A stretch of 63,997 bases of DNA, the filler included, from Perkinsus olseni (lineage: Eukaryota), in NCBI GenBank assembly GCA_013115125.1. It is 5 parts of 5 records of this genome, joined end to end, with 100 filler letters (N's around TTAATTAATTAA, not from the genome) between each part and the next. Parts side by side here need not be neighbours in the genome. Positions count along the whole stretch, not along the records: positions 41,440 to 55,133 come from JABANN010000749.1; 4 more parts are not named here. One strand, written 5' to 3'. Shown here piece by piece: positions 7,192 to 61,148 of the stretch. Each line of letters opens with the position of its first letter. Position 1 is the stretch's first letter. A program made the translations under genes and the position numbers. The notes under the pieces are model-generated. The model saw only the letters and a program-made list of their open reading frames with translations. It searched no databases and was not told where the DNA came from.

Positions 7192-7534
7192 GTAACTTAC
7201 CTGGTTTACCTCGTTTTCAGAACACCCAACCGCCGGTACCGGTCGCTCTGAGACCGAGGCCGTGCGCAATGGGCTTGTCAGGCCTGTGCGAAGGTTGGCC
7301 AGCGGGCTGCTAGTAGCTGATATGCTACGGCCGGGTTCAACGGTAAATGAGTCACCATAGGAGCTGTTAGCTGAGACTGTCGTGCGCCACTGCACACCGA
7401 ATGATTAGCGACACTGATCCAACGGCGGGCGCCCGATTATTCTGCCAAATGAATTGCCCTTGACAATTTAATCAAGCAGTTACAGCCACTAGGAATGATG
7501 GACAGTCACTCACAGTAACTCACCTTCGGCTCTG

Positions 7535-7621
7535 TCAGAGGTGCCTCGAGGGCTCCCAGACACTAACAGCTCAGAGTCGCTCTGAACCGTTAGTGTCCGG
7601 GCGCCCTCGAGGCACCTCTGA
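7535..7621 (-). other. 87-nt near-perfect foldback hairpin
   Basis: 42-nt arms with 4 differences and a 3-nt loop. Confidence 0.85.
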
Positions 7622-8007
7622 GACTCTCAGACTGAGAGCTGAGCGTTCTGCCATGCATAAGGCAACTGTGGACATCGTTGTGGTGCAGCACCAGTGATGA
7701 CCACTGGTGCTACACAAAACGCGCAGCACAACGCGTTATTGGCTCACATAGTGGTTCAACAGAGGCTCAGCAAATTAATAACGGCAACACAAAGCAGGTC
7801 TTGTTCCGTAACATCCACAACCACAATGAACAACACTAAAAACTTTTTTGATGCGCAAGGTGCTGGTTAATGATAGTAATGACGAGTCCTTGACCATAAA
7901 CAGGTTGATGATGATCCGATATAGCCACTGGTTGCCGAGTTCCACTATTCGTTCACATGCGCTTGGTGAAGCACCCGGGGCCACTCACCTCCATTCGATA
8001 GAGTTTA

Positions 8008-13729: not shown

Positions 13730-13829
13730 NNNNNNNNNNNNNNNNNNNNNNNNNNNNNNNNNNNNNNNNNNNNTTAATTAATTAANNNNNNNNNNNNNNN
13801 NNNNNNNNNNNNNNNNNNNNNNNNNNNNN
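13730..13829. other. Artificial contig linker
   Basis: N-run + TTAATTAATTAA (stop codons in all six frames) + N-run, 100 bp in total. Confidence 0.98.
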
Positions 13830-14242
13830 CCACCAGAGCTGCGAGCACGGGCGTGTATGTCGCTCTTCTTGCCAGTGGCTCTACACTAGTACCACTGTCA
13901 TTGAGCGAGGCGGATAAACTCGATCTAGCTACGAATAGCTGCACTTTATACTCTGGGCGGGACTTGAACCCGCAACCTTTGGAATAGAAGTCCAACGCTC
14001 TATCCGATTGAGCCACCAGAGCTGTTTAGATTACCTTGTATATTCCTTTCTGTGCGAATGGCTCTCAACACTACTACCACATGGCATGTGGCGAGGCGGA
14101 TGAACTTGGCTACAGCTACGAATAGCTGCATCTCCTGCTCTGGGCGGGACTCGACATTACCGTGCGTGTAGCGCCGCGTTTTACCTCGATCAAGCAACGA
14201 TAGTTACATCTGTTACTCTGGTCAGGACTTGATGCCGCGACT
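13830..14242 (-). repeat. Edge of a tandem tRNA-Arg(TCT) array (~185-bp unit) with decaying copies
   Basis: tRNA 5' end at 13830-13839, a full tRNA at 13949-14022, and 3'-end fragments at ~14137-14155 and 14214-14242. The two spacers are homologous. Confidence 0.8.
13949..14022 (-). tRNA. tRNA-Arg (anticodon TCT)
   Basis: GCTCTGG TG GCTC AATCGGATA GAGC G TTGGA CT-TCT-AT TCCAA AGGTT GCGGG TTCAAGT CCCGC CCAGAGT A; all four stems pair. Confidence 0.95.
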
Positions 14243-14407
14243 AGAAAAAAAAGACAGCTTCAGGACTCAATGATATAAGCCACAGCCGTCGCGACGATGA
14301 TATAAGCCACAGCCGTCGCGAGGGGTCGAGCCGCGCTTGCCAGGGGGGGGCCTTCAGACGGGACACCAACCGGTCCCTGTGATCGCCTCACGTAACCATC
14401 TGCTCAG

Positions 14408-27542: not shown

Positions 27543-27642
27543 NNNNNNNNNNNNNNNNNNNNNNNNNNNNNNNNNNNNNNNNNNNNTTAATTAATTAANN
27601 NNNNNNNNNNNNNNNNNNNNNNNNNNNNNNNNNNNNNNNNNN
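27543..27642. other. Artificial contig linker
   Basis: N-run + TTAATTAATTAA + N-run. Confidence 0.98.
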
Positions 27643-41339: not shown

Positions 41340-41439
41340 NNNNNNNNNNNNNNNNNNNNNNNNNNNNNNNNNNNNNNNNNNNNTTAATTAATTAANNNNN
41401 NNNNNNNNNNNNNNNNNNNNNNNNNNNNNNNNNNNNNNN
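41340..41439. other. Artificial contig linker
   Basis: N-run + TTAATTAATTAA + N-run. Confidence 0.98.
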
Positions 41440-42078
41440 TGTGCGCTGAGGCACGTCTGGGCAACGTGACCTAAAGTTGCGACGAGCAAAGTTGCCGAAT
41501 TGTATCATGCCCCTTCCAAACGTCCCTGGTGTTCACCAGACTGAATCGAGTTTCAAGATTCTCCGCCTTCCCGAGTTGAATTGGACCTCAAAGGCCCCCT
41601 AATCTCCAGAAAAGGCATCAGTCTATTGTTGAACACCCCCATCCCGAAAGACTACCGTCAACACGCCGAGCGCCAAGATCGACACGTGACGAGTAGCAAG
41701 AGAACATAACGCTACCGCTACACGACAGCCTCGTAGAACTCAGCTTTCTTGCATTTTCCGCTATTACAGAGCACACGATAATGAGCATAGAAAGAGATGC
41801 CATGAAGGTTGACCCTACTGCAGTTCCACGGCAGATCTCGCGTTGAGGAATGCACGAGGTAAGCCAAGGTCGCAAGATTTTTCTAGCTTTTAGTTGTCAT
41901 CATCATCTTCTAGAACTGCTCAGTGTGTTTCCTTTGAGGACTCAGTCGCTTGAGGGGCTCGTCGGCGAAGCAGCAACTTGCTCACCACTTCTTCGAGTCG
42001 AGGTGGGAATCTTAGGTCGACTTTGGTAAGATACAAATTGAGTCAACTCCCTGCTCACAGCCTCTTTAATCGATCAAC

Positions 42079-43589
42079 ATGGCTGACGTCTCTTTCGGCG
42101 TTGGTATTCTCTGTACCCTTCTCGCCGCCTTTTTCTACGGTATCCAATACGTGCCCTGTAAACAATACACCACCTTCGACGGTGCCGTCTTCCAATGGTT
42201 CATGTGCAGCGGTATTCTCTGGGGCGGCATCGTTCTTCAACTCATCCTGATGCTCGCTTTCGACTGGCCCGGTCCGCAGGTCATCCTCTACGGCGTCCTC
42301 TCCGGCATGCTCTGGGGCTCGGCGAATTTCCTGGTAATTCCTCTGGTCAGGATCTGCGGGCTGGCCTTGGGCTTTTCCCTATACCACATCATCAACTTAT
42401 CCTGGGGGTACTGTCTCAGTCGTTTCGGCCTCTTCGGGATGGACCAAGACGTCGGTCGGATACCCGTCCTTAGAGACGTTGGTGTCTTCGTGCTCCTAGC
42501 CTCCTTCGTTATGCTGTTCTGGGTTGAACCAGAGGAGGCGAAGGCCACCACCGCTCCCCTGAAGACCAAAGAAAGACCGTCGCAGAGCGTTCGTCACAAG
42601 GCTACGGCGCCGACCCAGTCCGATGAAACCTCTCCCATGGGCCAGGAGAATGATGACGACGTTGAAGTCGTTAAGAGCCCAACAGCAGGACAGCCGTCGA
42701 GGAAATATCTCTTTGGTCTGAGTCGCGTGCACGCCATTAAACTAGCAGGTAAATCGCCACTTAAATCTCTCCATTCCTCATTGCCGGGTCATTCAGGTAT
42801 CGCCTTAGCCATCGCCGCGGGAGTGCTGACTGCCATGAATGGATGGCCGTATGCTCTGTGGGCTCAGACCCAACAAGGGAAGGACATGATGGCGGTAGTA
42901 CACGGGAAGAGGTTGGGGGGCGCGGATACCAAATTTTGGAACTCTAATCGTTACTTCTAATTTCGCTTGTTAACTCGAACCGAAATTCTACCCTCGCGAT
43001 TCTAATCGTTCCAAATACCAAATTTCGCCCGAATCATTTGCATCTCGAATTAGCACTGTTCGCGCTATCTACACCCATTGCCACCATATTCTGTTCACCA
43101 GTGACCCCACGTCATGCGTCTCTGCAGGTGCAATTTGTATTCTCCCAAACCATTGGTATCTACGCCGTCTCCAGTATCTGGTACTGGCTCTCATCGACCA
43201 TCCGACAATTCGCTTTTAAAAAGCGTACCAATCACTCAGTTATTCGTCCAGCCTTCATTGCCGGTAGTGCCGTCTGTGGGATAGAACCTCTGCGGGATGT
43301 GATACAGCGGGTTTCAGGTCTCTTCTGGGTCATCGGTGATGTCAACATGCTTTACGGAATCGATGGTATCGGCTACGCGGCAGCTTACACTTTAGACGCT
43401 GTCGGACCGGTCATGGTCGCTAGTGTCCTCAGCCTTTTGTGGTTCAAGGAGATCAAGGAAACAAGGTGAATAAAATACCGTCGCCGGGGTTCGAACCAGA
43501 GACCTCTATTTCTCAGGCAGCGTCTATGGTTCACCGGTTCATTCGTCACTCAAGTCGCAGGTTGTATAATGGTAGCCGTAGGCGCCTAA
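42079..43589 (+). CDS. TMEM144: TMEM144-like (DMT superfamily) membrane protein, 5 exons
   Basis: FYGIQYVPCKQYTTFDGAVFQWFMCSGI, GMLWGSAN..GLALG..W..SRFGLFG and GPVMVASVLSLLWFKEIK match the TMEM144 pattern. Introns include 43264-43317 and 43466-43516. Confidence 0.85.
43268..43292 (-). pseudogene. tRNA 3'-end fragment (Lys-like) at the 5' end of TMEM144 intron 3
   Basis: Minus strand GGTTCTATCCCACAGACGGCA resembles a T-loop plus the CCCAC AGACGGC-N end of tRNA-Lys(TTT). Confidence 0.5.
43472..43507 (-). pseudogene. tRNA 3' half with T4 terminator inside TMEM144 intron 4
   Basis: AGAGGTC TCTGG TTCGAAC CCCGG CGACGGT A TTTT. Confidence 0.75.
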
Positions 43590-43957
43590 GAGTGCATCTA
43601 CTGCACCCAATACATTTTCCAGTCGAGTATCATTTAACAAAGGTGTGGTATGAAAAAATCCACACGCCTGCGCAGAAAATCATCCTAGGTATCTTGTAGA
43701 CTTGTAGTAGTAAAATATCTTTATTCCGTCAGTGTCACCCAGAGAAGCTTTCGCTGCCGTCCCGAATCCTTCGACGATTGCTCCTCTGACGTCTTGTGTT
43801 ACGCTATTTATCGACTACCAGCCAGCTTTGTTGTCCCCCTCCTACGAGGAGAAGACCACACGACTTTGCGGCTGTTTACGTTTTCCGACTCTTCGGTGGT
43901 TGGGTTGACGATCGCTGTTAATGGACTGCAAGAAGGAGAGAATAGCTTTTCATTAGC

Positions 43958-45151
43958 ATGTCGGACGGCGTGGAGGAGGACAGGGAGATCACACGCGATA
44001 TCTACGCCCTTTTAGCGGACAGCAGGGCCGAGCTATTCGATGACACAGTCGAAAGGTGAGCTCCTAATGGGTTCGAGTGACTGTAACAATGACTCTCTAA
44101 CTCGTGGAAGTAGCTGAGCTATGGAGACATAAGGGAGCAACTGTAGAGGAGAGTTAGGGCACCCAGCGTAGGGCGACGACCAACAGCGATTAGCTACGGA
44201 TCCTATGCTGCACATAAATGTCCGCATAATACCGTAACAAACTCCCTCTCTCGGTGCAATCAGTTCTCGGAGCGATCGTCTCGTCGGTGGTCAGTCGTCT
44301 CTCCGCCGCTCTGGCCCGTCTGCTGGCGAGGTTGCGTCAGAACAGCGGTGATCAGTGGATCGGGAATCGAATTGTAAAGGAGGTCCTGCTAGAAAATGGT
44401 AGGTCCTGGGATTCGAACCTGCGTCCAATATCCTCGACCATCAGGTACCGATCTCTTAATTAGAGTCATGAAGCGCTTCCCGGACCTCGCTGAACTGGCT
44501 GGCGAATGCATCGCCGCGGCAACCTCAGAAAATGTCATCTGCGGTTCCGGGGCGCCAACAACCGTCACTTTCGGCACTCCACCTCACGACGTTCAATTTC
44601 ACATGCAAACCGCCGACTACTACGGCGCTGGTCTCGGCTATAAAATATGGCCCGCCGCGATCGCGCTGGCCCGAGCAATCTATCAACATGATGTATCCCT
44701 CGGAGACCATCCGAAGGTTGTAGAGATCGGTGCAGGAGTCGGGCTAGCGGGCATTGCTGCGGCTAAATTCGGCGAAGCTTCTTCCGTCTGCTTCACGGAC
44801 AGGATGGCCGGGTCGTTGGAAGTCGCCATGAGAAACGCCAAGAGGAACTGCCTCAGCGGCAGATTTAGTAGTAAAGTCGTGGACTGGCGTGACGCTGATG
44901 GCCTGCCTGATGACGCTGATGTGATGCTCGGCGCGGATGTCATTTACGAGGAGGCACACGCCGAGCTGATCATGCAGCTGTTGAGGAACTTCCACGGCAA
45001 GAAGGCAGTACTAGCACTCATGCCACAGAGGCCAGGGTATAGGGAATTCATCTCGAAATTGAGGAATCTCAAGAGTGTGCAAGTTGCCAAGATGTCCGTG
45101 TCTACTCCGATAGGAGAATGTTCAATATTGGAGATCTCGGTGATTGACTGA
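43958..45151 (+). CDS. SAM-dependent methyltransferase, Methyltransf_16/METTL21-like; 5' exons tentative
   Basis: GYKIWPAAIALA, VVEIGAGVGLAGI, FTD, VDW and LGADVIY motifs. The intron 44399-44444 joins ..EVLLENG to TDLLIRVMK in frame. Confidence 0.85.
44399..44427 (-). pseudogene. tRNA 3'-end-like fragment at the 5' end of the methyltransferase intron
   Basis: Minus strand GGACGCAGG TTCGAAT CCCAGGACCTAC has a perfect B-box GGTTCGAATCC. Confidence 0.55.
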
Positions 45152-45641
45152 AGTCTCCATTCAATAATCTTCGCTGTGCGCGTAGGAAGATACGACTTTA
45201 TAAGATCGTTTTACCATCTCAAAGTGTCTCTGCCGTTTTCATTTTGATGGGTTAACTGTCGAGCTCATCAATCGTTCAAGAATTGTCGCTGCACACGCCG
45301 GCCAATATATCATGGAAAATTTACCGCAGAAATAAAACGGAAAGAGAATACGATGCACCGATGGCCAACACTCTCATGTGGAATTGGATCATTTCGTGCG
45401 TGTGTCTGAATAGCATCCAAAGCGTATATGAAGCCAACACGCACACCAAAGGGATCCACTTTGTCTCAGCACCTTGGGAAAATTAATGAAACTGCTCGAC
45501 ACGGTTTACCTCGTGACTTATGCGCAAAAGCCATCTCTTGACGAAAAATGCCGGGCCTGGAGTTGCACCTGAGGCTGCACTGGCTATCTCGAGTTGACGG
45601 CTTCGCTTCGCCACGAAGGCCTAGCGATCAACCCAACGCAC

Positions 45642-47131
45642 TCACGAGACGTTCCTTTCCTCACTGACACCGCGACTGCCGTAATAACTCAACACTCCTT
45701 CCTCCGGTGTTTGCACTAATTCTTTCATTCGCTACATTCACATCATCACGCTGCGGGGTCCTTCACTTGTGGGGAGGCCGCTGTCATACTCGACGAGGCC
45801 GCTCCTTTAATACCACTCCCTGCGCAAATCACAGCTGCACAGGGACACCCGAGGAGATAATCCAAACCCCACCTTTATAGCTCTCCTGCATGGCACCTTC
45901 ACCTCTACTCGTCGGCGGGGCTCGAGCGCTCTTCCCCAAGGCATTCTCCAACTCTTGATAAGCAGACCGCTGTATGTTTTGGGTGTTTTGAAGCCGCTAA
46001 AGAGAAGCAGCCGCTGAAAAATTCCAACGCCGTCCTCCGATCGTCACTTGGATGAGTTCCATCTCCTCCTTCTCCATGGCCGACACCAACGCCTCCGTGT
46101 GGGCTCGTAGCGTCTCCTCCTGCTGCACTTTATTTTCATAGTCCATTCGGCAGCTCTCCAGCTTTCGGAACTGATACCACAACATACGCAACTCCCAAGC
46201 CCGTCGGCCCCCCTCATCACCTTCTCTTGTTCGATCCTCTTCTTAGCATTGTCCCTCTGGCTTCGTATCGCCGTCGCCCTGCTCGTGTTGGCACCCCTGA
46301 AGCACGGCCTCCCACCACCCCTCTGCCCCTCCCTCCCACATGTCCCTCATCCACTTCTCCTGTCTCTGCCTTTCAAGCTTCATCTGCTCCTCCCGCCCCT
46401 CACGGACAAGATGCCGCTTCGATTCGAGCATCGCAGATCTCGTCGCCTGACAACACGCCATCGGAACCCCACAGCAGCGTCTTCTCGTCCCACCTCTCGC
46501 TGCTGCTTGGCCTTGTCCTTCATAAACGCATTCCTCGCCTGGCTGGCCCGAGCTGCCTCCCACTTCTTTTTGTGCATCTGACGACGCCCCAACGGTGCAT
46601 GACCGACCAGCGGACGCACTAGTGACGGTCACCTGCTCTTTGGCGATGACTTTTGCTTCATTCTCAGCTCGCAGTGTGTTGATTTGCTCAGCCCTGAAGC
46701 ATATCTTAGGTCGGCCCGTGAAAGATACCGAATAGGTCCGGCTTACTTTCTACGAGTCTCCTGTATCTTTTTCCAAGCCTTCTCCTCCTCTTGCTTCAGT
46801 AGTGCTATGCGGTTGGCAAGCAGCTGGGCGTCGAGTTCGGATCTCTTTCGAGATTCCTTCGCGACCTGATAACTCACTCGTGCAGCCCACTTTGCCCTAC
46901 TGGGAAGACCGACTTACCGTCAGAGTCGCGCGCATCTGGCTCACTTCGCCTTGCAGCTGCGACGTCGCCGTACTGGTATTGTGCAAATGCTGACCTGAGA
47001 ACAGCTCTGACCTGTTTTGAGTTCTGCATGGTTCGACCTAAGATACACCTACCACCTCCAGCTGATCCATGCAGAACGCTCTGGGACTGCTCTTGGGCGC
47101 TGTTATCGACCGAGACAGGCTGGTTCTCCAT
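45642..47131 (-). CDS. Multi-exon coiled-coil hypothetical protein
   Basis: Spliced exons AQLLANRIALLKQEEEKAWKKIQETRR..ALVSAMEKEEMELIQRLQNTQNIQRSAYQELENAL. The 3' end is uncertain. Confidence 0.65.
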
Positions 47132-48103
47132 TAGACAATGCAAAACTGCCAACCACCGCCGACGCGTTGCGATGATTCCCGCAAACTTCAAAGCATCCTT
47201 CTCTCGACAACCCACGACGAGCTCATGTGATGCCAGAGGTGACCGCTGTCCGGGGCTCCTCTACCCTCTGCCTCATCGTCATCACCTCGTCGCCTTCGAT
47301 AGAATGCCGACGCTTCCTGCGAATACCAAATCTTCACCGCCACTCGAATGGCACCTACATGCTCATCCGCCTTGCCGCGCTACAAAGAGCCGCAGCCGAC
47401 ACGCAGAGGTCGCCGTCGAGCGAGTCGGAGTCTAGGTCCGCACACCACACTAGCCGACGGGGTAGACGATAGCCTGAAGCGTTCGATGAAGGGTTACTCT
47501 GGAGACGAATACTCACCATGAGGAGTACAGAATGGCTCCGGTCCGAGAGTGAGGTGCCCCTTCCTCGGGAAACACTCCCTGAGCGATCGCTCGGAGTTGC
47601 AGCGCCTGATCGAGGCAGTAGGGATCGTCAAGGGGACGACATGGGTCTTCCTATCCGACCTCAACCGTCTCGAGGAGGTGGTGTCCGATGACAAGCTTGA
47701 AAGGCGGCCTGAGGTTTGGGAAATACGGCTGGCCCGTCGCTGTTGATGGACCGACGGAAAATTCCGAGAGGAGTCCGTCCTCTCTGCAGAATAGTCGGAG
47801 TCTCCTTCAGCTCTTCTCGCCGCGCTATGCGCTGCTCGAAATCTTCAACTAGATGACGGAAGTGAACAGCGTCGGAGGACAAGACATGCTGTTTAACCAT
47901 AAAGAGGAAACTATCGGTGAAGAATCAACGAGATTGTACCTCCTGTAGCGTTCGAACCGGCGACCTGTCGCATCTAGGACGAACACCATGTCCAGCTGAG
48001 CCACGCCGCTCACGGCACACACTGAAAACCTCCCAATGAAGCGACGGCCATTGACAAAATCGGAGCATCCCTCTTCATAGAAAAGGAGTAACATAACCAC
48101 CAA

Positions 48104-50049
48104 TCACTGAATTCTCTCGATGACCACACTCGTCGCCCCTCCTCCGCCATTACATATTGTCGCACAACCGACACTGTAATCATTCTCACCCAAAATTCTC
48201 GTCAAAGTCCCCACCAGACGGGCTCCTGAGGCTCCAATGGGGTGCCCGAGAGCCACCGCCCCTCCGTCCACGTTAACCCTCGACGGATCTAGGTCCAATA
48301 ATTTCATATTGGCGATGGCCACCGACGAGAAGGCCTCGTTAATCTCCCAGACGTCAACGTCCCTGAAAACAACAAGGCGTCTAAACTGAGATAATCGCAA
48401 CTAGTTTACAAGTGAGACCATCCTGTTTGGAAAAACATCTCTTCACAACGGAAACCAACTCAAGCAAGACCGCCAGCTCTCCACTGTGGAGGACGCATGC
48501 ATGCCGCCCCCGCCGCCGCCGCCGCCGCGCGGATGAGGCGGAATGGCTCCCCCATGATGCTCACTTCGGCGTCATCCCTGCCTTCTGCAGTGCCACCCTC
48601 GCTGCCCCGGCCGGTGAGATCGAATAATCTATGGGGTCCTGCTCGAAATCTGCCCAGGAGATGATCCTGATCAGCCAGGCCACTTCAACAATCGATCAGC
48701 CGGGCGGGCGCTTCTATCACCGAGCCAGCGGGGTCAAGCCTTGTTCCCGAGAGAATTCCTCACTGACGACGACGAGTGCCGCTGCACCATCGTTGAGCTT
48801 GGAGGCGTTGGCGGCAGTAATGGTGCCATCTTTGATGAAGGCTGGTCGGACCGCTGCCACCCGCTCGATCTTCAAGTTCGTGAACCTGAATTCGACAAGT
48901 TGTTTCCAACAACCACGAGAGGTGAGACTCACTCCTCATCACTGTAAAAAATTTTAGGTTCGCCACCCTTGACTGTTGGGGGGACTTCAACTGGGAACGC
49001 CTAGGGAACGCTAACGCGTTGCGGATCTCGGGACGTGCGCAGCAACATTCGAGTTGGACTGGAAAGTGATGCACCGAACCTCCGAAACTTGCCTCATTCT
49101 TCATCTTTCCTTTACTCCACGCCGCGGCCGCCCTCTGATAGGACTGGATGGCGTAGTCATCCTAACGCACGAAGCAGCATTCAACTCGTAGCGGCGGGCC
49201 AAGACAGCACTTGCTCCTCTCGAGTAATGCCAAACTCTTTAACGGTCTTCTCAGCACACTTGCCCATGTGGATGTCGTTATAGACATCCCAGAGCCCATC
49301 TCTCAAGACTAGATCTACCAGCTGGCCATGGCCGTATCTAAAACACTCATCGCCCGATTAGTTCAGCTGGATAGAATGTCTGCCTACGGAGCAGATGGTC
49401 GTAGGTTCGAATCCTGCATCGGGTACTTACTTATACCCGCCACTCCTAGCCTCCGTCAATGCATGTGGCGTATTGCTCATCGACTCCATCCCTCCAGCAA
49501 CAATCTGCCATCATTCTATACCACCATCCACTGAGGAGTCACCTACCACATCGGCCTCCCCCACAGCGATGGAAGTAGCCGCGATAGAGACCGCCCTCAT
49601 ACCACTGCTGCACACTTTATTAACACTCATCACAATCGTGGACGAGGGAAGCTTGGCCGCCAAAGCTGCCTGACGTGCCGGGGCCTGACATAGATAGACA
49701 AACCGCAGTCGCACAGAACGAACCCACGACCACTGGCAGCGTAGGGGTGAAGATTAACCACTCGCCCATACTACCTGTCCACAAGCCGCTGAGAGTACAT
49801 GCCCCATGATAACCTGATCCACCTCTCCACCATCGACCTTCGCTTGAGCCAATGCTCGCGTGATGGCCTGAGGCGATCAAACATATCCCCTCAATCGCCT
49901 GTTAATGCTTTCCCAAAACCACCCACATGAGCTGCTAGTTGAGGCGCCTTGAACGACGACAACCTCCCCAAAAAAGAACCGATCGGAGTTCGAGCATAGC
50001 CGACTATCACCGCCGACCGAGGCAGGGAGAGGGGACGTATGATAGGCAT
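48104..50049 (-). CDS. Acetyl-CoA C-acetyltransferase (thiolase), multi-exon
   Basis: [73 protein letters not shown] and CNGGGG. Includes a GC-AG intron at 49001-49092. Confidence 0.95.
49352..49425 (+). tRNA. tRNA-Arg (anticodon ACG), antisense within a thiolase intron
   Basis: GCCCGAT TA GTTC AGCTGGATA GAAT G TCTGC CT-ACG-GA GCAGA TGGTC GTAGG TTCGAAT CCTGC ATCGGGT A; all stems pair. Confidence 0.95.
49704..49774 (-). pseudogene. Degenerate full-length tRNA (Ser-like) forming a thiolase intron
   Basis: GTAGTATGGGCGAGTGGTTAA...GGTCGTGGGTTCG..GCGACTGCG retains an A-box, a partial B-box and GTAGT/ACTGC acceptor pairing. The anticodon arm has decayed. Confidence 0.55.
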
Positions 50050-50579
50050 GAAAAATGAAGCCCCCAGCCACTAGACCCGCGCAAGTTCGATCCCCAGGTC
50101 CGCAACCCAACGCCATTGACCAGCATTAAGCCGCTGACACGCATCTGCCCGAACGACCTCCACAACTAACCAGCCTGCTTGCACAGAATTGACGGTATTC
50201 AACCACAGGAAGAGGCGCTTGCAGCGGCGGAGGCGGCAATATCCCCACTAACAGTAGGAGTATGATAAATGTGATAATAATTGAGCAATGACAACGTGAT
50301 TTTGAGAAGTGCTATTATTACTACCGATAGAGCATCAATCAACATCAACAACGGTATGGCATCAACCGCTATTACAGGTTTACTGACATCACCACCTTCA
50401 TTAGAGATGCATCAAGGAGATACAAAATGGTAATTCGCAATGACGACGACCATCGTGCACAGCCGGATGAATAGGTAGAAGAACAAACTCAGAAATTATT
50501 GATAAGTATCTAAGGTGGAACCACGAAAGATACAGAACAGCTCAAGACTGGAATGCAGTATTCGTAGAGCCTGGCTTAC

Positions 50580-51590
50580 TCATTGCACTGTTCCTTCAAC
50601 TGTCGGTGTTCGCCCTTCAGGAGGGAACGGGGCGAAGGGTATCGGCAAGGCTTCTTCCTCCAGCACTGGCGCCTACGCAGGAACAGCACCCCAACCTGAT
50701 GGCACCGCAGAGTATCCAAACCCGGGCATACGTTAGGCATGGATCCTCCTCCTCCGGTCGGCCCTCCACCAGCCCCAGCGCTCATCATCGGAGTTGATAG
50801 TTCCCTTTGACGTGCCGTAGAATTGAAGAGCGAGAACCCCTTATACTGAGAGCCAGCTCTCCCGCCTCAACGCTATGCCCTCCCTATCCTAACCTTAATA
50901 GCGTAGTAGAGTGTGAGTGCTCCTGTAGATATCATAAACATGCCCGACAGGACACAGAAGAACGACCAGAACCTGACCAGGAGTGGGTCGGAGCGATCGC
51001 AGACTCCCTAACGGCCTACCCAGAGTTGACCTTGACTCCGTCGTCTTCTCCCAGTAACGCCATCAGCATCCTGGCCTCGCCCTCTTCACGACTGCCCTCT
51101 GTTACCGATCGAACCGACTTGTACGTATAATTGCCACTACACAGCATTCCTATTACCTGAAAAAGGGGGGAAACCTTTAGCGGAGCGAAGCTCTTCGAAT
51201 GTTATTACTATGTAGAAGACAGCACGACCGATGAATGAAGTCATGAAGGGTAGAACAGCCCGTATAACTTTATGAGCCTTCGAGTCTCGGGGCCTGACAA
51301 CAAACGCTGACTCTCCATCCAAAGGTCCCCGGATCGATCCCTGCAGCCTGCATTTTCATACCACAACTCCGCAATCATCCCGGCAACACCCAAGCCACCA
51401 AACAAGGCAAGGTCAGCCAAATTACGTAATAACCTCCACAACGAATACTGAGGACAGAAAATGTACCTGAGAAAATACAAATACCCCTCCCGGGGTTCGA
51501 ACCCGGGACCTCCTACGATAACGAATGCACCACCATCAATAAGCATGAGCCGCTCCCACTGAGGCGAAGGATGTGCTCGATGCTAGCCAT
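50580..51590 (-). CDS. COPI-associated/TVP15-like small membrane protein, 6 exons
   Basis: Spliced MASIEHILRL..GMIAELW..VLPFMTSFIGRAVFYIVIGML matches the COPI-associated pattern (FxxxxxGRxxFY). Confidence 0.7.
51317..51356 (+). pseudogene. tRNA 3' half with T4, antisense in COPI-gene intron 2
   Basis: ATCCAAAGGTC CCCGG ATCGATC CCTGC AGCCTGC A TTTT. Confidence 0.6.
51482..51516 (-). pseudogene. tRNA 3' half forming COPI-gene intron 1 (sense)
   Basis: GTAGGAGGTC CCGGG TTCGAAC CCCGG GAGGGGT A followed by TTTGTATTTT; the T-arm is perfect. Confidence 0.8.
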
Positions 51591-51767
51591 AATTACAACA
51601 AACTCGATGAAAGCAGTAGAACATTTTCCCCTAAACGCAAGCCTCGGAGGAAACGATAAAATCACTCCATCGTTCTCTCCACTAATAACAAGCCCGCATA
51701 CGAAGGCTTTCGCAGAGGCCCGAAAATGACTGGTAAAAATCTGAAAGGACCGCTGATGCAATGATGG

Positions 51768-52645
51768 TCAGAGGAATCCTGACGCGCACCCGGAAGATTT
51801 TCTCCCTGGATGTCTGCGAATTGAATCTTTATACGTTTCTCCTTTGCAAAGTAGCCAACAATGGAGGCCGACGTTTGGGACCTGACAGGTTCGATCGTGA
51901 TGGCCTGGGTTGGATCTGCGATATGGCACTACTACCGCTGATACTATCCCGACGATGGATGCCAATACTAAGGCTAACGACGCCCAAGGGAGTCTCCGGC
52001 TGATGGCGAAAAACAAGTACCTGACACAACAAACCGTTCTCAAGCACCGTCCTCCAACCCGAAGGTCTCCGGATCGAATCCTTGCTGTGATATCTCGAAG
52101 CCTCCTTATTACACCACGACGATCCCTCCGGCAGCCGCTGTCCCGATCCACATTTGACACATCCGAGGCAATGCAGAGCGTGATAATAAAAACAATATGA
52201 TACTGACCGCGACAGCACAACAGACCTGAGACAACCATCACTACCACCGACGTCACTCCCCACCAACCACTATCCATGCAACCGGTATGGGAACTATCGT
52301 CCTCCCTCGGTCATCATCAGTAGCGAAGGCCACGCAGGCACAGACCCCCACTCCTACGCTGAGGAGCATGTAAATGCTGCATACCACAACAAACAGTATC
52401 TGATGGCAGAGCAGATGGTCTCGGATCTATCACCCACCGTCTTACGAAGGCTCGTCTGTTCCGCAGTCCGATGCAGTTGTTCACCACCGCACAGTGATGA
52501 TCGAACTCTCGAATACAGTAGCCGCACTCGGAGCCTGTCTTGAAGGAGCCTCAGGGGTAGGACGAGGAGAGAGTACCCTTACAGTGACTCCATCCATCCA
52601 GGCGATAAATCTTGCAAGTGCTGCAGAAACGGACGTCATGACCAT
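51768..52645 (-). CDS. Hypothetical multi-pass membrane protein, multi-exon
   Basis: Splicing 52021-52112 gives [53 protein letters not shown]. The start is tentative. Confidence 0.55.
52056..52092 (+). pseudogene. Initiator tRNA-Met-like 3' half, antisense in an intron
   Basis: AACCCGAAGGTC TCCGG ATCGAAT CCTTG CTGTGAT A has the GGATCGAA T-loop and TGATA end typical of eukaryotic initiator tRNAs. Confidence 0.7.
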
Positions 52646-53209
52646 TGGAAAGGGCTTTGGCCGTATCCAGGTCTAGACGGGTGTTCACATAGAGGGCGTA
52701 ACTGATGGTGATTTGGGGAAGAGATGGTATGGCAACGATGAATCACCTGCCGTCATTGAAGCTCTGCCCCCTCACGTCCCGTATCTCGCGCTGATACCTG
52801 GCAAAACGCAAGATACGATCCCGAAAATCCAAGCCACGGAGTTGGGCATCGTGCCACGAAGTGGCAGCCGAGCTGCTGGCCTACGCTTCATCGGGGCCTT
52901 GACCTGTCCTCGACAACACTTCCAATGGCGGCACGGCGCCGGGGTCCGAGAGTGCTGTATCAAGGAAAAGTACTACTGTAGAGACGAAGAGGGTCTGAAG
53001 GGACGATGGTGGAGGGAAGGGGATCGACGAGGGTTCACCAGGCTGCCTGCCTCCAGGCCCGGATGAGGCTCTGGGAGATCATAGAAGAGGGAGAGGAGGA
53101 CTAGGCCCAGGTGGAGGAGGAGGCCCGACCCTGTTAGAAGGAGGAGCGAGGGGGCTGAAAATGACATCACTAAATTAACGCATACAGGTGGCGACGGAGC
53201 CGTGCCCAA

Positions 53210-53312
53210 GATACTCTACGAGTCGACCTCAAGATACACTTCACGAGTCGACCTCAAGATACACTTCACGAGTCGACCTCAAGATACACTTCACGAGTCG
53301 ACCTCAAGATAC
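53210..53312. repeat. 25-bp tandem repeat, ~4 copies
   Basis: ACGAGTCGACCTCAAGATACACTTC starts at 53218, 53243, 53268 and 53293. Confidence 0.92.
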
Positions 53313-54150
53313 TCCTAGGACCGATCTTAAGGTGGCGTATAAATCGACGTCGAAGTGCCCTCGTACAGCTCTTCCTTCGGGGTGCATACATCCAGGGCGT
53401 CAGTGACTGGAGCATATCTTGGGCATGAAGGTGACCGAAGGTAATCATTCAACTCGCAGCAGCCATTGTATCGCCACCACCGTCGTCCCCAATTGCTCCC
53501 CTCGAACGTTTTTCCCCACAAATATAATCGTTCATCATTATATAATCGTTCATAACCGTGCGTGCGGCGGACCGCGAACGGGAATCGATGCCCGTGCCCC
53601 ACCGTTTCTTCTGGCGCTCATCCGAGGTACCCGTACTCGAGCGTAGCAAAACTGTATATCCTCTTCGTTGTATGCATGTTCATCAGCGATAAACGCGAAC
53701 GCTCGAAACTTCGATTTCCATGATCCACGTGAACAATGTGTCGGGCACGGAAACAGAAACAATTACATCGATCACCCCGAGCAACGGAGTAAGGGACCGT
53801 GCGAGGCCACTAGTAGTCCTTGTGGAGCATATCTTAACTCGGAGCTTGACCTTCACTGGGGAGAGCACGCTTCGACCAAAGATATGCCTTGGTGAAAATT
53901 GATAATTGGTGGAATGATCACATCGTGGCGGCTGTGAGTGAAAGTCTATCGCAACGCAAAACAACCTTGCTAGTGAATTGAGTTAACACCACACTGGATA
54001 TGATAGCAAGGGAATGCCTTAGAAAGCCTGATTTAACTTGATTGTTGGGGGTAAGCCGCCCTGGACTGAACTCAGTGCCATTAAGGTCTCAAGAAAAAGG
54101 CTAACTTGAATAAGTATAGGTCGGGTCTAGGATAATATCTAATATTCTGA

Positions 54151-55133
54151 CTATTCAACTGATCTTCCTAAGCTAATACAGCGGCTGCACGCATACTCAG
54201 GTTCCTTGCTGGAGCGAGGTGGCGCGCGGAGCTTGTTGTCTACACGTAGACAACACAGAAAAATCAGGGACTCTCTCTCCATAGACACCACCCGTGATGC
54301 CATGAACACGGTAGACCTCGCGTCCATAGCTGCCACCGCCCATGGGGCTAGGCGTGAACACGAGTACCTCCGCACCGACCTTGGGTGGTCCACGTCTAGG
54401 GACGAACCTTCTTGCCGAAGAAGTAGTTGTAGAAGCCTTAATAGCGTCAGCGACGAGGCGATCCAAGTAGTCACCGTCCTCCCGCCTTTGACGAGCTTGC
54501 TCGGCGTCGGCTGGGGTAGGGGCTACAGAACCTGGGCTCTGAAGAGCATTCTCCACCGGGAAACGTCGTGGCCTCGCGAAGAATATCTCGTGCGGTGAAA
54601 GATCCACCCCATCCAAAGGCTTGGCATTGAGACGAGCGATCACCCGATGGATCTGCGTCGACCACGCACGCTTGGAAGCCAGCTGACGAGTGATGAACTT
54701 GATGGCGGACACCGACCGTTCTACGAGACCATTCGAGAAGGCCGCATAGGGGGGTAGTTGCTGATGAACCACCCCTTGGGAGGCCATGAATTCCATAAAC
54801 TTTCTCCCGCGGAAACAGGGTCCACGATCCGATCTCAGCCGGCCCATTGGGCCAAAGATGCTGATGAAGGTTGACAGGGCGCCGATGACCGAAGAGGAGG
54901 AGCTACTGCGCAGTGGAGCCACTAAGGCAAAGCGGCTGAAGTGATCCACCAGGAATAACGCAGAGGTATAAGTGCCCTTCCTGTCAGGACCCATCTCCGC
55001 GAGGTCAGCCGACACTATGTCCCAGCATCCATGGGCACCCTGTGAGAGGTTCCGACCACTGTCGCGGAGAGAGTAATATCGCTTGTTGTGGGCGAACTGA
55101 CATTGATCACAAGAACGGCAGACCTCAATGGCA
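54151..55133 (-). mobile_element. Ty3/Gypsy-like integrase (3' end of an LTR retrotransposon, cut by the contig end)
   Basis: CxxC Zn-finger end, SADL, LVDHFSRF, SDRG, PYAAFSNGLVER and SPHEIFF form a DDE integrase core. Confidence 0.88.
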
Positions 55134-55233
55134 NNNNNNNNNNNNNNNNNNNNNNNNNNNNNNNNNNNNNNNNNNNNTTAATTAATTAANNNNNNNNNNN
55201 NNNNNNNNNNNNNNNNNNNNNNNNNNNNNNNNN
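55134..55233. other. Artificial contig linker
   Basis: N-run + TTAATTAATTAA + N-run. Confidence 0.98.
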
Positions 55234-57262
55234 AAGCAGAGCTTTGAGAAGTTGATTGCCATGCAATAAAGCATCGGCAAGGCTACTATTGATTGTTACG
55301 GGGCCGGTATTCGACACAATACAGTGTTTGCCTCAAAGATCTTGACTCTGATTCTCGTGTTAAGATCGCGGCGACGTTCTACTGGAGCACTTTGCGCAGA
55401 CTCAAGCTGTCAAGCAGAGCTATGGCATGTGGTCGGCCTTGGTTCTCAGAGAGCGGGCCCTGACAAAATCCATTGATCTCACTCGTCCACTGTTCAAAGT
55501 GGAGGATGCCAGTATTTAAACTCAAGCACAGAACCAGGGGGATTGGGTGCTGTCGCATCGGTTTCTACCGAGGGCCAGTACTCGTATCGCGGCAAGAAAG
55601 GTGGCAAGGGCTCGAAAGGGGATGGTCTTCTAGTGGGTCTTTCGGTAAAGGAGCCAACTATTGAGAAGGAAAAGGAAAGGCCAGGAGAAGAGGCAAAGCT
55701 GTGAGGAGCTCTCCGTACCCACAGTATTGTGGCTGGCCTAACTAACAGCAATGTTGCACGTGTGGAGGCTTTGTCCATTGGGCCAATGTGTCTTCTTCCC
55801 GACAGCTCGTGGATGACAGGCAAGAAACAAGGCATCGGAGGCAAATGCATTCGCTTTTCAGAGAACCAGTCTATGATTGATCTTCTCGAGTCGAGATCTC
55901 CTGAGACGTACGCCTCGCGATAATTTCTGCTCTGTGAGTTACAATATTCTCTTTACCACTGACACAACTAGGTGTCACGTTGGGGCACAAGTTACCTTGG
56001 GAGACCAGTGACTCGCGTGTGAATTTTACGCGTCAAATGTAAGTACCGGTTACGAAGTAGGCGTGTTTAGTTTGGGGACGAAGACAAACTGAACAGCCGC
56101 TACAGAATAGCACAATCAGGCCTGCGAACTTCTTGTGAGCTCTGGGGAGGCTAGCTGGTCGAGGAATTCAACAGCTAATCTGTCTACAAGGCACAGTAGC
56201 TTGTCAGTTGCAGTTCATTTCAATTTGAAGTCAAATATCGACATCCTCAACACAGTCCCGTGTACCTCCGACGTAACACCTCTTCCCCGTCGCCGTAGTG
56301 AGCAGCGTTATCTGGTGGTCCCAGGCGGCCTGAGGTAGCCCACAACCTCTCCGGCAGTTGGCGTCTGCCATGCAAGACGGCCGTGCTGACCCCCTTGTTG
56401 GCGCGGCCGACCTGTCCGCTCTCGGCAAAGGTGGAAGGTGGACGATCTCGTCTTTCTGCCTCTTGTTGGCCATCTACTTTACCACCCACTGCTGGGAGTT
56501 GGCTCTGGTCTTCGCTGCTGTCGCTATCAACCAGTTGTCGCGTTTGGCGGCTTAACCGCAGAGACTGGCGGCGTCGTTGCAAAGCAGCGCAAGCTTGCCA
56601 CCGGCACGGATATTACAGTAACCCGGTTGCCACTATCTTTCACACAACCGACACCGGTGCCCTGGTGGAACGCATATCGCTAGAACAGGCCCAACGGGTA
56701 CTAAGTTGATTACAGCAGGCTGTTGCCTGAGACGGAGTCAGGCGTTGACGGCGAAGTCCTGCTTCTTGGCCTATAGGGAGCTGGCAGACGGAGCGTCAAA
56801 TCGTCGCCGTTGCAAATCGATGTCTACTCTCCGGGACTGCGCTAGGAGCGAGATAAAATATGCTTCGCTGGTTCCCTGTTGTCGCGCGCCTGAGGCACCC
56901 CCTGCTACCGTCGTCGTTGTTCACGGGCTGAGGACGCTGTTTCCGCTCGGCGCTATCTAAGCGGCTCTGAGGATGGCGGACTGATAACATCTCCCGACCT
57001 CATCCGCTACTGCTTCGTAAGTGTTGTGGTGGTGCTGTTTTCGTCCTTCACCATAAAGCAACCCATTCCTCTCGAACGCTCGCGTCACTCTACTAGCTGA
57101 GTCCTTACCTAAGGCTCTTCGTTCAACTGTCAACAACCAGGACAAAGCTCGCCTGGCTCCCCGTTGCGAGTTTGCTTCCCTTGGCTCCAGGACATTCACC
57201 TTCTCCCCGCTCTCCGGTTGGCGCCGTGGCGGCAAGTTCTTCTTAGATCAGCACTACTTCAA

Positions 57263-57375
57263 CGCGATTAACCAACGCGATTGCAAAGTTACAGCGGGAT
57301 AACTCGTTTTAGAGAGTAGGAAGAGCATAAAAATGCCTTGGATCTCGTTTCGGAGTGGTGCGTCACGTCACGTGA
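57263..57375 (-). repeat. 3' LTR-like direct repeat
   Basis: Matches 61149-61261 at 104 of 113 positions (manual count). Confidence 0.85.
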
Positions 57376-60300
57376 GGAAAGAAAGGGTAACGGATGAATG
57401 AGTGTGAGAAAAAATCATTGTGTTGTGATCAACTTGTAGAGAGGTTGCTGCATCTCCTTATTAGTAGATAACTCACGAAGAAAGTACGTCTGACCCCGAA
57501 TCTCCTCCACAATGTAGGGTCCTCTTGCTAGGGCTCCAAGTTTGATAGGGGAAGGAGTACGAAGGTAGACTTTGTCGCCGATGTTGACTTGCTTGGCAGT
57601 ATCTCCGAGTCGTTCCCCGTGTACGATCTCAATCATCTTTCCATTGTCCCCCAATCCATTCTTCGAGTAGGCCTTCTGGACGAGGTGCGCAGAGTTGATA
57701 GGTGTGTAGTAGATCCCATGAAGATATGGTACCCCATCTCGGACGACCATTAGCCAAGGAGACGGCCTCGGAAACGATAGTCTTCCAATCCAGTCGAGGT
57801 TTGGTCGATCGCAGCATCTTGAGGTTCTCGTTCAGCGGCCCGTGGGATCAACATTTTCCACCATAGCGTGGGCTACCTGGTGGTATCAAATGGTGCTGGA
57901 CGTTTATGGATGAAGTATAGAGACGAAATATACCACTCAGATAACTCTGTCCTCTGTCGGAACATATACGCCTCGGAGTTCCCGCGCGAGCAAGGATTCG
58001 TTTCACGGCAGTAACCAATTGAGCCCCATTGGTTACGGGTTGACGGCTAGTTACAGGTTGAGCCCCATTGTTGTGATAGCCCGTAAGAAGATCAGTACAC
58101 ACCACAAGATATTTTTGTTGATCACCATTATTGTCGTATGCGCCGCAGTGATCGATCCCGACGCTCGACCAAGGCACTCTGTCGATCTTCTTGGCAGTCG
58201 ATCCTTGGATAGCAAGTCTTCGAGGACGTGTCCTTATACATCTACCGCAAGCAGTAACCAGTCTCGCCACCATGGGTCTCATTAAAGGCCAGTGGAAGTG
58301 CTTCACCAGCTCATTGTAGTGCTTCCATCCTCGGAGCAGTAGGTGACGATCCAGCCGGTGTCACGAAGCCTCGTGCCCATATTCTTCTGCCAGTGAGAGT
58401 CTCGACGACGATTGCTGAGGCTTTATTCGATGCGTCGATGTAGGCTATGATGGTATCGTAGTCGACATTACTTGGGTAGAGCTGTCTCGGCGAAGATGGT
58501 GCTTGACGAAGAGAGAGTTCACCCACTGTTCAATGATATGCAACTGCTTCGGGCACAGAGCCGAAGCCTTGCCAGTCAGTGCAGCTTGCTGTAAATGTAA
58601 CCGAGCTTTAATCAGGTGTTCAAGATAGAGATCACAGGGATCAAAGAAGGTAGCCAAGAACCGACGGTAATCATCAACGGTAACCAGTGGTCTCGACTCG
58701 GACTCTCTCGTAGCAGATATGGATAGAGTGTCGTCATCAGCAGACCAGCGATATCCCAGCATAGAGCCTGATTTCTTCGACGTACCATGAGACTCGACTC
58801 TCTTGGCTTCATCGAATGGCCAACATGAAGTTCATTCTCTTCGAATCCTCGTTTGTTGGCGTCGCTCAGAACCACGGATGAGACTTGATGGGCGAGGCGT
58901 CGAGACGATGCTGCCACGCTTAGGTCATCCATCAGGATTCGCACGCCGTAGTTGGCTACGTTGTCGACTTGTACAGTATGGTGAAGCTCATCAAAACTCT
59001 CCGCGAGGTTGTCGTTCAGCGCATGTATCAGCGCCCCTGGACTATCGGGTAGGCCAAATAATACTCGTTGATAGGAGTAGAGGACGTTGCGCCACCAGAA
59101 ACATAGCTGCTTTCGGTCTTCTTCTAATGCGTACTCGGCTTGCAGGAAAGCAGACTGAAAATCACAGGATATGAAGTAGGGGAACCGCCGTAGTAGGTAG
59201 ATGGAGCTTGTCACATGCTGCTTGTCGATGTCGGTGAGATTTGGACTGACGATACCTCGTAGGCTGCTACCGTCGAAAACGGGTCTGACCTTCATGCTGC
59301 TCAGCTCATTGCCATGCTTTCGAACACCAGAAAAATGGTTCAGACAAAACTTAGCATCCTTCGGAGAGATGGGTTTGATGTAGCCCTTCTCGCGGAACTT
59401 CTCGATCTCGGCGTCGTAAAGATGGAATATGCCATCTCGACGGAGTCTACTCTCCAGCTTTTCTGCCAGTTTGCGGAAGGCCTCGACATTATTGGTAGGT
59501 TCGGGCTTCAACCATTTGATGGTGTGCTTGTACCGATAGGGAGAAGACGTATCGGCCAAGGCACTCGGGTCGTTGTCAACCGTGGATACCGCATGAAGGC
59601 ATTGGTCCTCGTCGATAGAGTCGGCAGTGAAGTCTTCTGTGGTAACTCCACAGATGATTGATGAGTGAGGAAGATCATGAATGTCATCTTTGTTGCTCGT
59701 AACGCTAGACACCAGCTTGTCTTCTTGAGAGTCTTGGTCAGATGATGATGAAGATTCACTCGTCGGCACCGGACGAGAGGAGAGTAACCGAGAGTAGAAA
59801 GCATCCCATAAGGACTTGAGTTCGGGATCTAAGGAGCCGATGTTGAGTAGACGATCTTTATTCTTCGAAAATAGCCATATAGTAGGATCTGTGAACTGTC
59901 GGGAAAGGTGAGCACTGACCAGTATGTACGTCTCTGCTGAGGTCTTTGATAACAACCACTGGAGCTGAGATACGACGATGACCGTGGATGAAGACCATGT
60001 CGTAGATAGGACAATTCTTGAGAGGTTTACCATCTGCCATGATTGCTGTACATATTGCCTTCGGGTGTGGGACCTCAACACCGCTCTGTACCAACCGGTC
60101 AATTGTTGCTTGGCTCACTGCTGTCATCTCGGCACCAGTATCAATAAGACCTGTGATAGGAACAGGACCAGTCTTGCCGGCTATTTGCAGAGCCTTCGAG
60201 CTCAATGGTGATGAGACGAGTAGTACTACTTGAGTAGTAGTACCCGCGATGAGGGCATTCTCCAATGTTAAGTGTGGTAGTAGCTGTTTTGCTGGTAGAC

Positions 60301-61148
60301 GCTTCAGTAGTGGACGTTGTAAGCGGACCAGGACAAAAGGGTGATGTTTACCTTCTGCAGAGCAACGTGGGCATCTCCGATTTGTGCTTGCAGTACAGCG
60401 AGTGGGATCTTGACAGCAGTTCTTCCCAGAGCCGATCCTTCTGTTACATTGAAGACACCGACCATCCTTCTCGACATGGTTTGGGCTTGGACAATTGCGG
60501 TGATGATGGCCTGGTGGATCCACAGTGTCAAGACATCTCAAACAACTCCACCGTCTCGGTTTGCCAGGGCCCTTGTTCCCTCGCGGACGGGATGGCGGAC
60601 GATCCACAAAGGCGTTGTTGTTGGTGTCGACTGTATTGATGAACTTGGGATTATTAGCTTGATGACCAGTCTTTCGGTGAGCGTTGGCGAGTTGTTGCAC
60701 TCTGTCCAGTTGAATAAGTTCATGTAGAAGCTCGTGATAACCAACCGACGCCATCTTATTGAGACCAACTTCCCTATGCACTGTTGGCAGGGTCATAAGG
60801 AGTTTATGCTTGAGAACTCGCTCGTCGATAGGGGTCTGCCTTGGATACCGATGTTCTTGCCGATGGGGACTGTCTCTAGGCTGATGCGCCACTGTGTCTT
60901 ATGAGAGCTAGGGATCCATGCACCGAGGAAAGGACGGTTGTCCAGATTTAAGTAGTGTACCGAATCACCGAGGAGAGGAGCGCAGACCGTGGCAATGTGA
61001 GCTTCCACTATGATGAACATTGCATGACCCGACTCAGAGCTTCGTAGGAACTAGAGCGGTAGCATATCTGTCCTTGCTGGGGAGCTTGAAGTACTGTAGA
61101 GCAGGAGTAGGCGTAGTTGTAGAAGGCATATCCCGGTAGAAGAAATGT

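Follow-up and report, generated by a model that had tools for sequence, protein, structure and literature searches.

How spliceosomal introns arise is still unsettled, introners being the chief mass source documented so far. tRNA retropseudogenes and SINE-like fragments are dispersed, truncated tRNA copies, and tailless retropseudogenes keep the 5' part. In C. elegans, 44-47% of the tRNA genes are intronic and 56% of these lie in sense orientation (PMC4999229). Within the genus Perkinsus, P. marinus has very many tRNA genes, and its Dada DNA transposons insert into the tRNA-gene A-box TAGCTC (PMC3706591). A search of titles and abstract openings, among which the paper on the P. olseni genome did not appear, yielded no account of introns composed of tRNA 3' halves; the available part of PMC3101222 gives intron frequency and lengths only.

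We find that the last intron of a TMEM144-family membrane-transporter gene of Perkinsus olseni, 51 nt long (43466-43516), carries a tRNA 3' half in antisense orientation, a relic that bears on the construction of tiny introns in this shellfish parasite. By analogy, intron 4 appears to behave like a decaying nested intronic tRNA gene. As in C. elegans, tRNA genes and pseudogenes lie within the introns of protein genes in either orientation, yet here the tRNA sequence fills nearly the whole of an intron of about 50 nt, is present as a 3' half only, mostly antisense, and stands against the donor (PMC4999229). The introners of Micromonas, Aureococcus and Amoebophrya likewise provide intron bodies from repeated DNA and affect many introns (here 5 of 15 tested), but our elements have many tRNA isotypes as sources and no terminal inverted repeats, and the position is apparently old rather than species-specific (PMC7789003); the ends of intron 4 are unpaired in the sense-strand fold and share only a 3-nt AG|G overlap, overlaps of this type in the gene's other introns being 3-6 nt. 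Like ETC and isolated B-box sites, intron 4 has a B-box consensus without an A-box; unlike them, its B-box derives recognisably from a particular tRNA and comes with an acceptor strand and a T-run (PMC3159450). Dada is found in the same genus, and its target motif TAGCTC is present in the Phe homologs of the element, but no Dada sequence or footprint is identified at intron 4 and Phe is absent from the targets reported in the available part of PMC3706591, in whose four text supplements a term search found no Perkinsus tRNA sequences. Compared with tRNA retropseudogenes, the dispersed truncation is alike, whereas intron 4 has neither a poly(A) tail nor a target-site duplication and keeps the 3' half. 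We give a probability of roughly 0.5 to the reading in which the interior of intron 4 descends from a complete tRNA-Phe(GAA) gene, nested antisense, whose 5' half has been lost.

The window, by which we mean the whole stretch of DNA analysed (63,997 nucleotides), consists of five separate pieces divided by four identical N-TTAATTAATTAA-N spacers (13730-13829, 27543-27642, 41340-41439, 55134-55233), so that neighbours across spacers mean nothing. On the piece at 41440-55133, the TMEM144-family gene (42079-43589, plus strand) has five exons (42079-42748, 42797-42894, 43128-43263, 43318-43465 and 43517-43589) that encode 374 aa, as indicated by Pfam PF07857, by alignment to the annotated P. olseni protein P0001 and by RNA joints. 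Intron 4 is a phase-2 GT..AG intron (GTGAAT...CTCAG) whose sequence and coordinates are just as the original prediction had quoted them. Its splicing is seen directly: in four of four sequencing runs, one recorded as RNA, two guessed to be RNA and one of a kind not recorded, a contig skips its 51 bases together with the gene's three other introns, and these contigs carry no information on strand, level or antisense small RNA. P0001, which reads KEIKETRQRLWF...GA, shows a 17-codon gap against the window at the same site and letter-for-letter identity within the aligned blocks. The predicted junction is thereby confirmed, and with GT..AG ends, absence from the mRNA and a restored reading frame the segment qualifies as a spliceosomal intron. 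One of the contigs has a poly(A) end at 43888.

Read on the minus strand, intron 4 contains a variable loop (43505-43501), a T-stem and T-loop (43500-43484), the 3' strand of the acceptor stem (43483-43477) and a discriminator (43476), directly followed by TTTT (43475-43472); CCA is absent. The stretch at 43476-43505 corresponds to tRNA positions 44-73, and within it an intact B-box (43487-43503) fits GTCnnnnGTTCRAnYC (consensus from PMC3159450). The best match in a panel of 88 tRNAs, which is rich in Phe and contains no Asp, Trp or Tyr, is the tRNA-Phe(GAA) gene L001, over 33 of 40 columns and over 27 of 30 at positions 44-73. Phe still ranks first when the loci found by pattern are excluded (83-tRNA panel), and none of 1000 shuffles reaches the alignment score. 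A profile of tRNA 3' halves scores the element at 13.9 bits, and 10 shuffled windows reach 10.3 at most; at 12 bits or more it has eight matches in the window and none in the shuffled ones. The original claim of an antisense tRNA 3' half in this intron is thus borne out. Chance resemblance might have been argued, since neither ARAGORN, which calls no tRNA at the element, nor Rfam, which has nothing there whether run on the whole window or on 371 bases, reports it; we reject it as having next to no probability on the shuffle, shuffled-window profile and intron-panel tests. The lack of a complete cloverleaf and of a 5' half argues that this is not a functional nested tRNA gene.

A degenerate pattern taken from the element has six metagenome matches, all six of them tRNA-Phe(GAA) with the 5' end GCCGTTG; the pattern derives from the element itself and Phe is over-represented in the panel. 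These closest tRNAs lie on marine metagenome contigs, not from Perkinsus as far as can be told, and the same pattern has no match in viral contigs. With 27 of 30 identities, 0/1000 shuffles and 6/6 Phe matches, the homology to tRNA-Phe is directly seen, and it supports Phe(GAA) as the isotype of the parent. The search for a parent thus succeeded as to isotype by homology, but the expected 5' end, near GCCGTCG or ACCGTCG, is not that of the closest tRNAs found, which start with GCCGTTG. Over positions 44-73 the element differs from L001 at three places, namely one G.T pair, T-loop position 59 and T72. Given that T72 is also found in both intact tRNAs of the window, and that a T51.C63 mismatch is common to the element and the L001 gene, positions 44-73 may be almost free of mutation. 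Positions 32-43 (43506-43516, the acceptor end of the intron) are much less alike and differ at four letters and one gap.

What kind of molecule was copied? The absence of CCA, together with TTTT following the discriminator in two of six elements considered from RNA-shown introns (against a background of 0.4% per position, P ~3e-4), upholds the view that the source was a gene or a pre-tRNA and not a mature tRNA. In the same direction, a retropseudogene of a mature tRNA does not fit an intron with TTTT after the discriminator, no CCA and no duplication. Reading the T4 as the site where Pol III stopped on the parent gene is plausible, but for P. olseni no more than plausible, because neither of the two intact tRNA genes in the window has a T4 directly after its discriminator. 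A few bases past the T-run are common to the intron 4 element and the intron at 51467-51516, and we therefore lean towards a DNA-level copy rather than a pre-tRNA origin; no CCA, a T4 and shared bases past the T-run are what is expected of gene copies.

Intron 4 is not alone. Among 15 RNA-shown introns (the joints listed, 15 of 42), five contain tRNA 3' halves, each with 0/100 shuffles, four antisense and one sense, and two further ones match tRNA 3' halves at p 0.01-0.02. Intron 3 of the same TMEM144 gene (43264-43317, plus strand, 54 nt) carries an antisense tRNA-Ser(TGA)-like 3' half that begins in the anticodon loop and has a broken B-box. The 68-nt intron at 51294-51361 (minus strand) carries an antisense 3' half with T4, and the likeness of layout that had been proposed for it, donor, A4 and reversed tRNA 3' end, is there in an intron shown by RNA. 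The 50-nt intron at 51467-51516 (minus strand, also RNA-shown) holds a 3' half in sense orientation with a perfect B-box consensus. It forms with intron 4 the best look-alike pair among 16 introns of one window, in which 32 of 39 columns agree, the T-rich trailer being part of the match; the two lie in opposite orientation, and tRNA homology explains their likeness.

Several further sequences on this piece resemble tRNAs. The minus-strand introns at 52400-52445 and 51882-51935 contain older-looking antisense tRNA relics, the former sharing 12 identical bases with the tRNA-Arg(ACG) of the window. In the introns at 51294-51361 and 52021-52112, tRNA position 54 is an A (GGATCGA); the two match along 46 columns, resemble each other in their GT-rich acceptor ends and may represent one isotype. 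In a predicted methyltransferase-gene intron (44349-44444, plus strand), whose acceptor at 44444 fits RNA pieces and whose donor is predicted, an antisense T-arm with an intact TTCGAAT loop is followed by CCA and TTTT (about 44388-44426).

All clear elements retain the acceptor strand to position 73, and their 5' end varies. No tRNA 5' half is found in the 15 RNA-shown introns, the lowest p being 0.11 (panel alignment, 60 tests). Planted 5' halves were recovered in 117, 103 and 74 of 120 cases at 0, 10 and 20% mutation, and planted 3' halves in 120, 106 and 74 of 120; detection power is equal for the two halves. The comparison of 5' with 3' halves was made by panel alignment with this power test. 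A profile HMM of 5' halves was dropped, as it missed even both intact tRNAs of the window.

This bias is the strength of a competing explanation, in which a copy that lacked the 5' half at the outset moved into an intron already there and took the place of most of its interior. Such a copy could have been reverse-transcribed from a U-tailed pre-tRNA with truncation at the 5' end, or could have been a piece of tRNA-gene DNA captured at a break. We regard it as unlikely, though it has several points to commend it. Besides the constant acceptor strand, the variable 5' end and the lack of 5' halves at equal power, 3'-only copies occur outside introns too, as tRNA 3'-end-like pieces on the plus strand at 1609-1632, 1703-1738 and 50080-50097 (the last in the interval from a transcript end to the start of the thiolase gene) and at 14136-14253. 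The 5' part is lost in both orientations and outside introns as well, which is the main argument for such a copy; the absence of 5' halves from the sense-oriented 51467 intron and from the copies outside introns speaks against a nested gene. Retroelement ORFs lie within the window, and the position of intron 4 looks old. Random decay does not predict missing 5' halves, whereas 3'-anchored copying or retention of the B-box does. On the other side, full-length copies, both intact and decayed, have the same donor-side geometry, no target-site duplication extends past the AG|G overlap, which the gene's other introns have as well, and the bases shared with 51467-51516 reach slightly beyond the T-run. 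Arrival as a ready-made half, as the original prediction had implied, is held less likely than loss of the 5' half by a whole nested gene.

The nested-gene reading draws on a series of neighbours, directly seen on one 13.7-kb contig, in which all elements are antisense and the tRNA 3' end lies 2-20 nt from the donor. It runs from an intact tRNA-Arg in a 93-nt intron through full-length decayed copies to introns of 68, 54 and 51 nt. Its first member, a thiolase intron 6 kb from intron 4 (49338-49430, minus strand, boundaries from sequence), contains an intact antisense tRNA-Arg(ACG) (49352-49425, plus strand) whose 3' end lies 5 nt from the donor, and may serve as a model of the starting state. 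Its joint is not one of the 15, out of 42, that were listed. Contigs of RNA runs leave this tRNA at 49418-49425 into differing flanks, so further copies of tRNA-Arg(ACG) exist; none of the flanks shown starts with a T-run. The RNA-shown 92-nt intron at 52021-52112 (minus strand) holds an antisense relic of full-length size that aligns to a tRNA from end to end, with a clear 3' half, an eroded 5' half and a partly retained 5' strand of the acceptor stem. A decayed full-length tRNA-like sequence (44058-44129, minus strand) lies antisense in a longer intron predicted for the methyltransferase gene and has its 3' end at the donor; its 5' start is best kept, and its likeness (2-3 of 300 shuffles) is weak, since the segment was chosen after a scan. 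Full-length decayed tRNA genes are found at 672-750 and 47925-48000 (both minus strand, 0/150 shuffles each) in what is apparently intergenic DNA. The series does not account for the 3'-only copies outside introns, and it includes no full-length version of intron 4 itself.

On the nested-gene reading, a whole tRNA-Phe(GAA) gene would have come to lie backwards in an older intron, with its 3' end and T-run by the splice donor, and its sequence would have been conserved for as long as the gene worked. An internal deletion would then have removed the 5' half, perhaps directed by the resemblance of the acceptor TCAG to the reversed anticodon loop; Dada transposons, which hit A-boxes, might be another cause of the 5' loss. 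Intron 4 would thereby have shrunk to the usual size of about 50 nt, and the remnant, which is spliced out normally, is probably neutral. An old site with young-looking contents is most simply explained in this way, by a long period of function and a late loss.

Did the tRNA sequence enter an intron, or did it create one? If an antisense tRNA 3' half had landed in an exon, the reversed C32-U33-G34 of its anticodon loop could have served as the CAG acceptor and its trailer side as the GT donor. The tRNA alignment indeed reaches the acceptor at 32/33 in introns 3 and 4, ending in intron 4 exactly at the 3' end of the intron, at C32; the match of intron 3 is good past the forced letters, and tRNA-like sequence covers up to about 46-48 of the 51 nt of intron 4. 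However, TCAG forms the terminal bases of 12 of the 15 RNA-shown introns (joints listed, 15 of 42), so that CTGA is nearly forced and the coincidence of acceptor and anticodon loop, where AG may fall on C32-U33, is demoted to a match that is mostly forced. Furthermore, the four differing letters and the gap at positions 32-43 contrast with the near-pristine positions 44-73, and in the 51294 and 52021 introns the acceptor falls well outside the anticodon loop. We consider such a birth of the intron quite improbable.

The age of the position bears on the same point. Its signs come from partial or mis-spliced protein models, one model per site. Among 36 matches, no ORF of other Perkinsus reads into intron 4. 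In the P. marinus model P0004, exon 3 runs on into the last exon, read in the +1 frame, exactly at the intron-4 acceptor, and the tail of the model agrees with the last exon in that frame at 11 of 16 residues; as AAG would stand there even without an intron, this evidence is moderate. A partial model of a paralog, P0059, breaks off with the final complete codon ahead of the intron-4 site, P0078 begins with the first complete codon that follows intron 3, and P0009 extends into intron 1. This paralog shows 52% identity, and both P. marinus and P. chesapeaki have counterparts of it. Seven cut ends of partial models (P0007, P0056, P0058, P0059, P0078) include two exactly on intron sites and one two codons past, and we infer that the contigs of these models end inside introns. 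Together these models suggest that the intron-4 position is also present in P. marinus and in the older paralog, which argues against a recent fragment having created the intron. What favours creation is that the nearest TMEM144 relatives outside Perkinsus (P0011-P0013, P0015, P0070-P0076; 42-46% identical) have unbroken ORFs across all four intron sites, on metagenome contigs of up to 103 kb, but these intronless relatives may themselves have lost introns. A pattern scan of prokaryote genomes and viral contigs gives no match to P0013 or P0070.

Whether the relic of intron 4 is neutral can be approached through its neighbour, intron 3. Orthologs of the P. marinus type also have intron 3, as their read-through peptides reveal; there it is 8 nt shorter, and its B-box is broken in the same way. 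Its tRNA part agrees between species at 35-36 of 39 positions in the best case, an upper bound derived from peptides, compared with 32/45 for intron 1 and 74/99 for the most variable exon stretch (Fisher p 0.03 and 0.04) and 141/168 for the whole loop (p 0.26). This is a hint against pure neutrality. Conceivably, such relics are retained by selection as stand-alone B-boxes (TFIIIC sites, ETC-like) or as splicing elements, which would be compatible with any origin. The perfect consensus in intron 4 and in the 51467 intron (consensus from PMC3159450), the persistence of 3' halves only, the conservation of intron 3 and the ability of isolated B-boxes to function in Dictyostelium (PMC3159450) are consistent with this. 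Yet the conserved intron 3 has a broken B-box in both species, decayed copies form a continuum, and folding shows nothing unusual (nine sequences, z -1.95 to 1.25; intron 4, z 0.24 sense and -0.41 antisense), so we hold retention by selection to be doubtful.

Positions 44-73 are also still compatible with a working tRNA, and the element could in principle supply the 3' half of a split, permuted or long-intron tRNA gene, with the 5' half added at the level of RNA. Since the window holds no Phe-like 5' half, the 3' anticodon stem is degraded, and the elements comprise many isotypes at many stages of decay, this is very improbable.

More generally, tRNA-gene remains with a fixed geometry make up at least one third of the tested introns (5/15; joints listed, 15 of 42), and TMEM144 intron 4, with its apparently old position and young-looking contents, is a rare handle on timing. 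If this holds, nested tRNA genes that come and go would renew the interiors of Perkinsus introns, and the presence of tRNA sequence would not by itself be proof of intron gain. If the sites prove to be empty in relatives instead, tRNA genes would be a new source of introns. A wider and tentative proposal, which we put well short of even odds, is that a large part of the mini-introns of Perkinsus are made or remade out of tRNA genes, whole or as 3' halves, that enter exons or introns; a reversed anticodon loop or T-run would then supply splice signals for a 50-nt intron, and some of the relics would perhaps be TFIIIC sites. Introns built from tRNAs in this way would amount to intron gain or interior replacement without a dedicated transposon.

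Other features of the window may be recorded. At 25369-25270 (minus strand) lie the 5' two-thirds of a tRNA-His(GTG) gene, broken in the T-stem at a short tandem duplication and followed by a hairpin, of which a 12-base motif recurs at 1864-1875; it looks like an element inserted into the tRNA gene, and the 3' part is not found in the window. The tRNA-Arg(TCT) gene at 13949-14022 (minus strand) sits within a tandem unit of about 190 nt at the end of a piece (13830-14253), and at the edge of this array 14136-14155 and 14214-14253 are copies of the 3' end only. The intact gene is not followed by a T4. The retroelement ORF pieces (integrase, aspartyl protease) at 54197-60898 (minus strand) are spread over two pieces of the window. 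Two tandem ORFs at 8008-10417 (minus strand) have no Pfam match and are near-identical in their N-terminal 90 residues, and 7532-7624 forms a long hairpin with sub-threshold Rfam matches.
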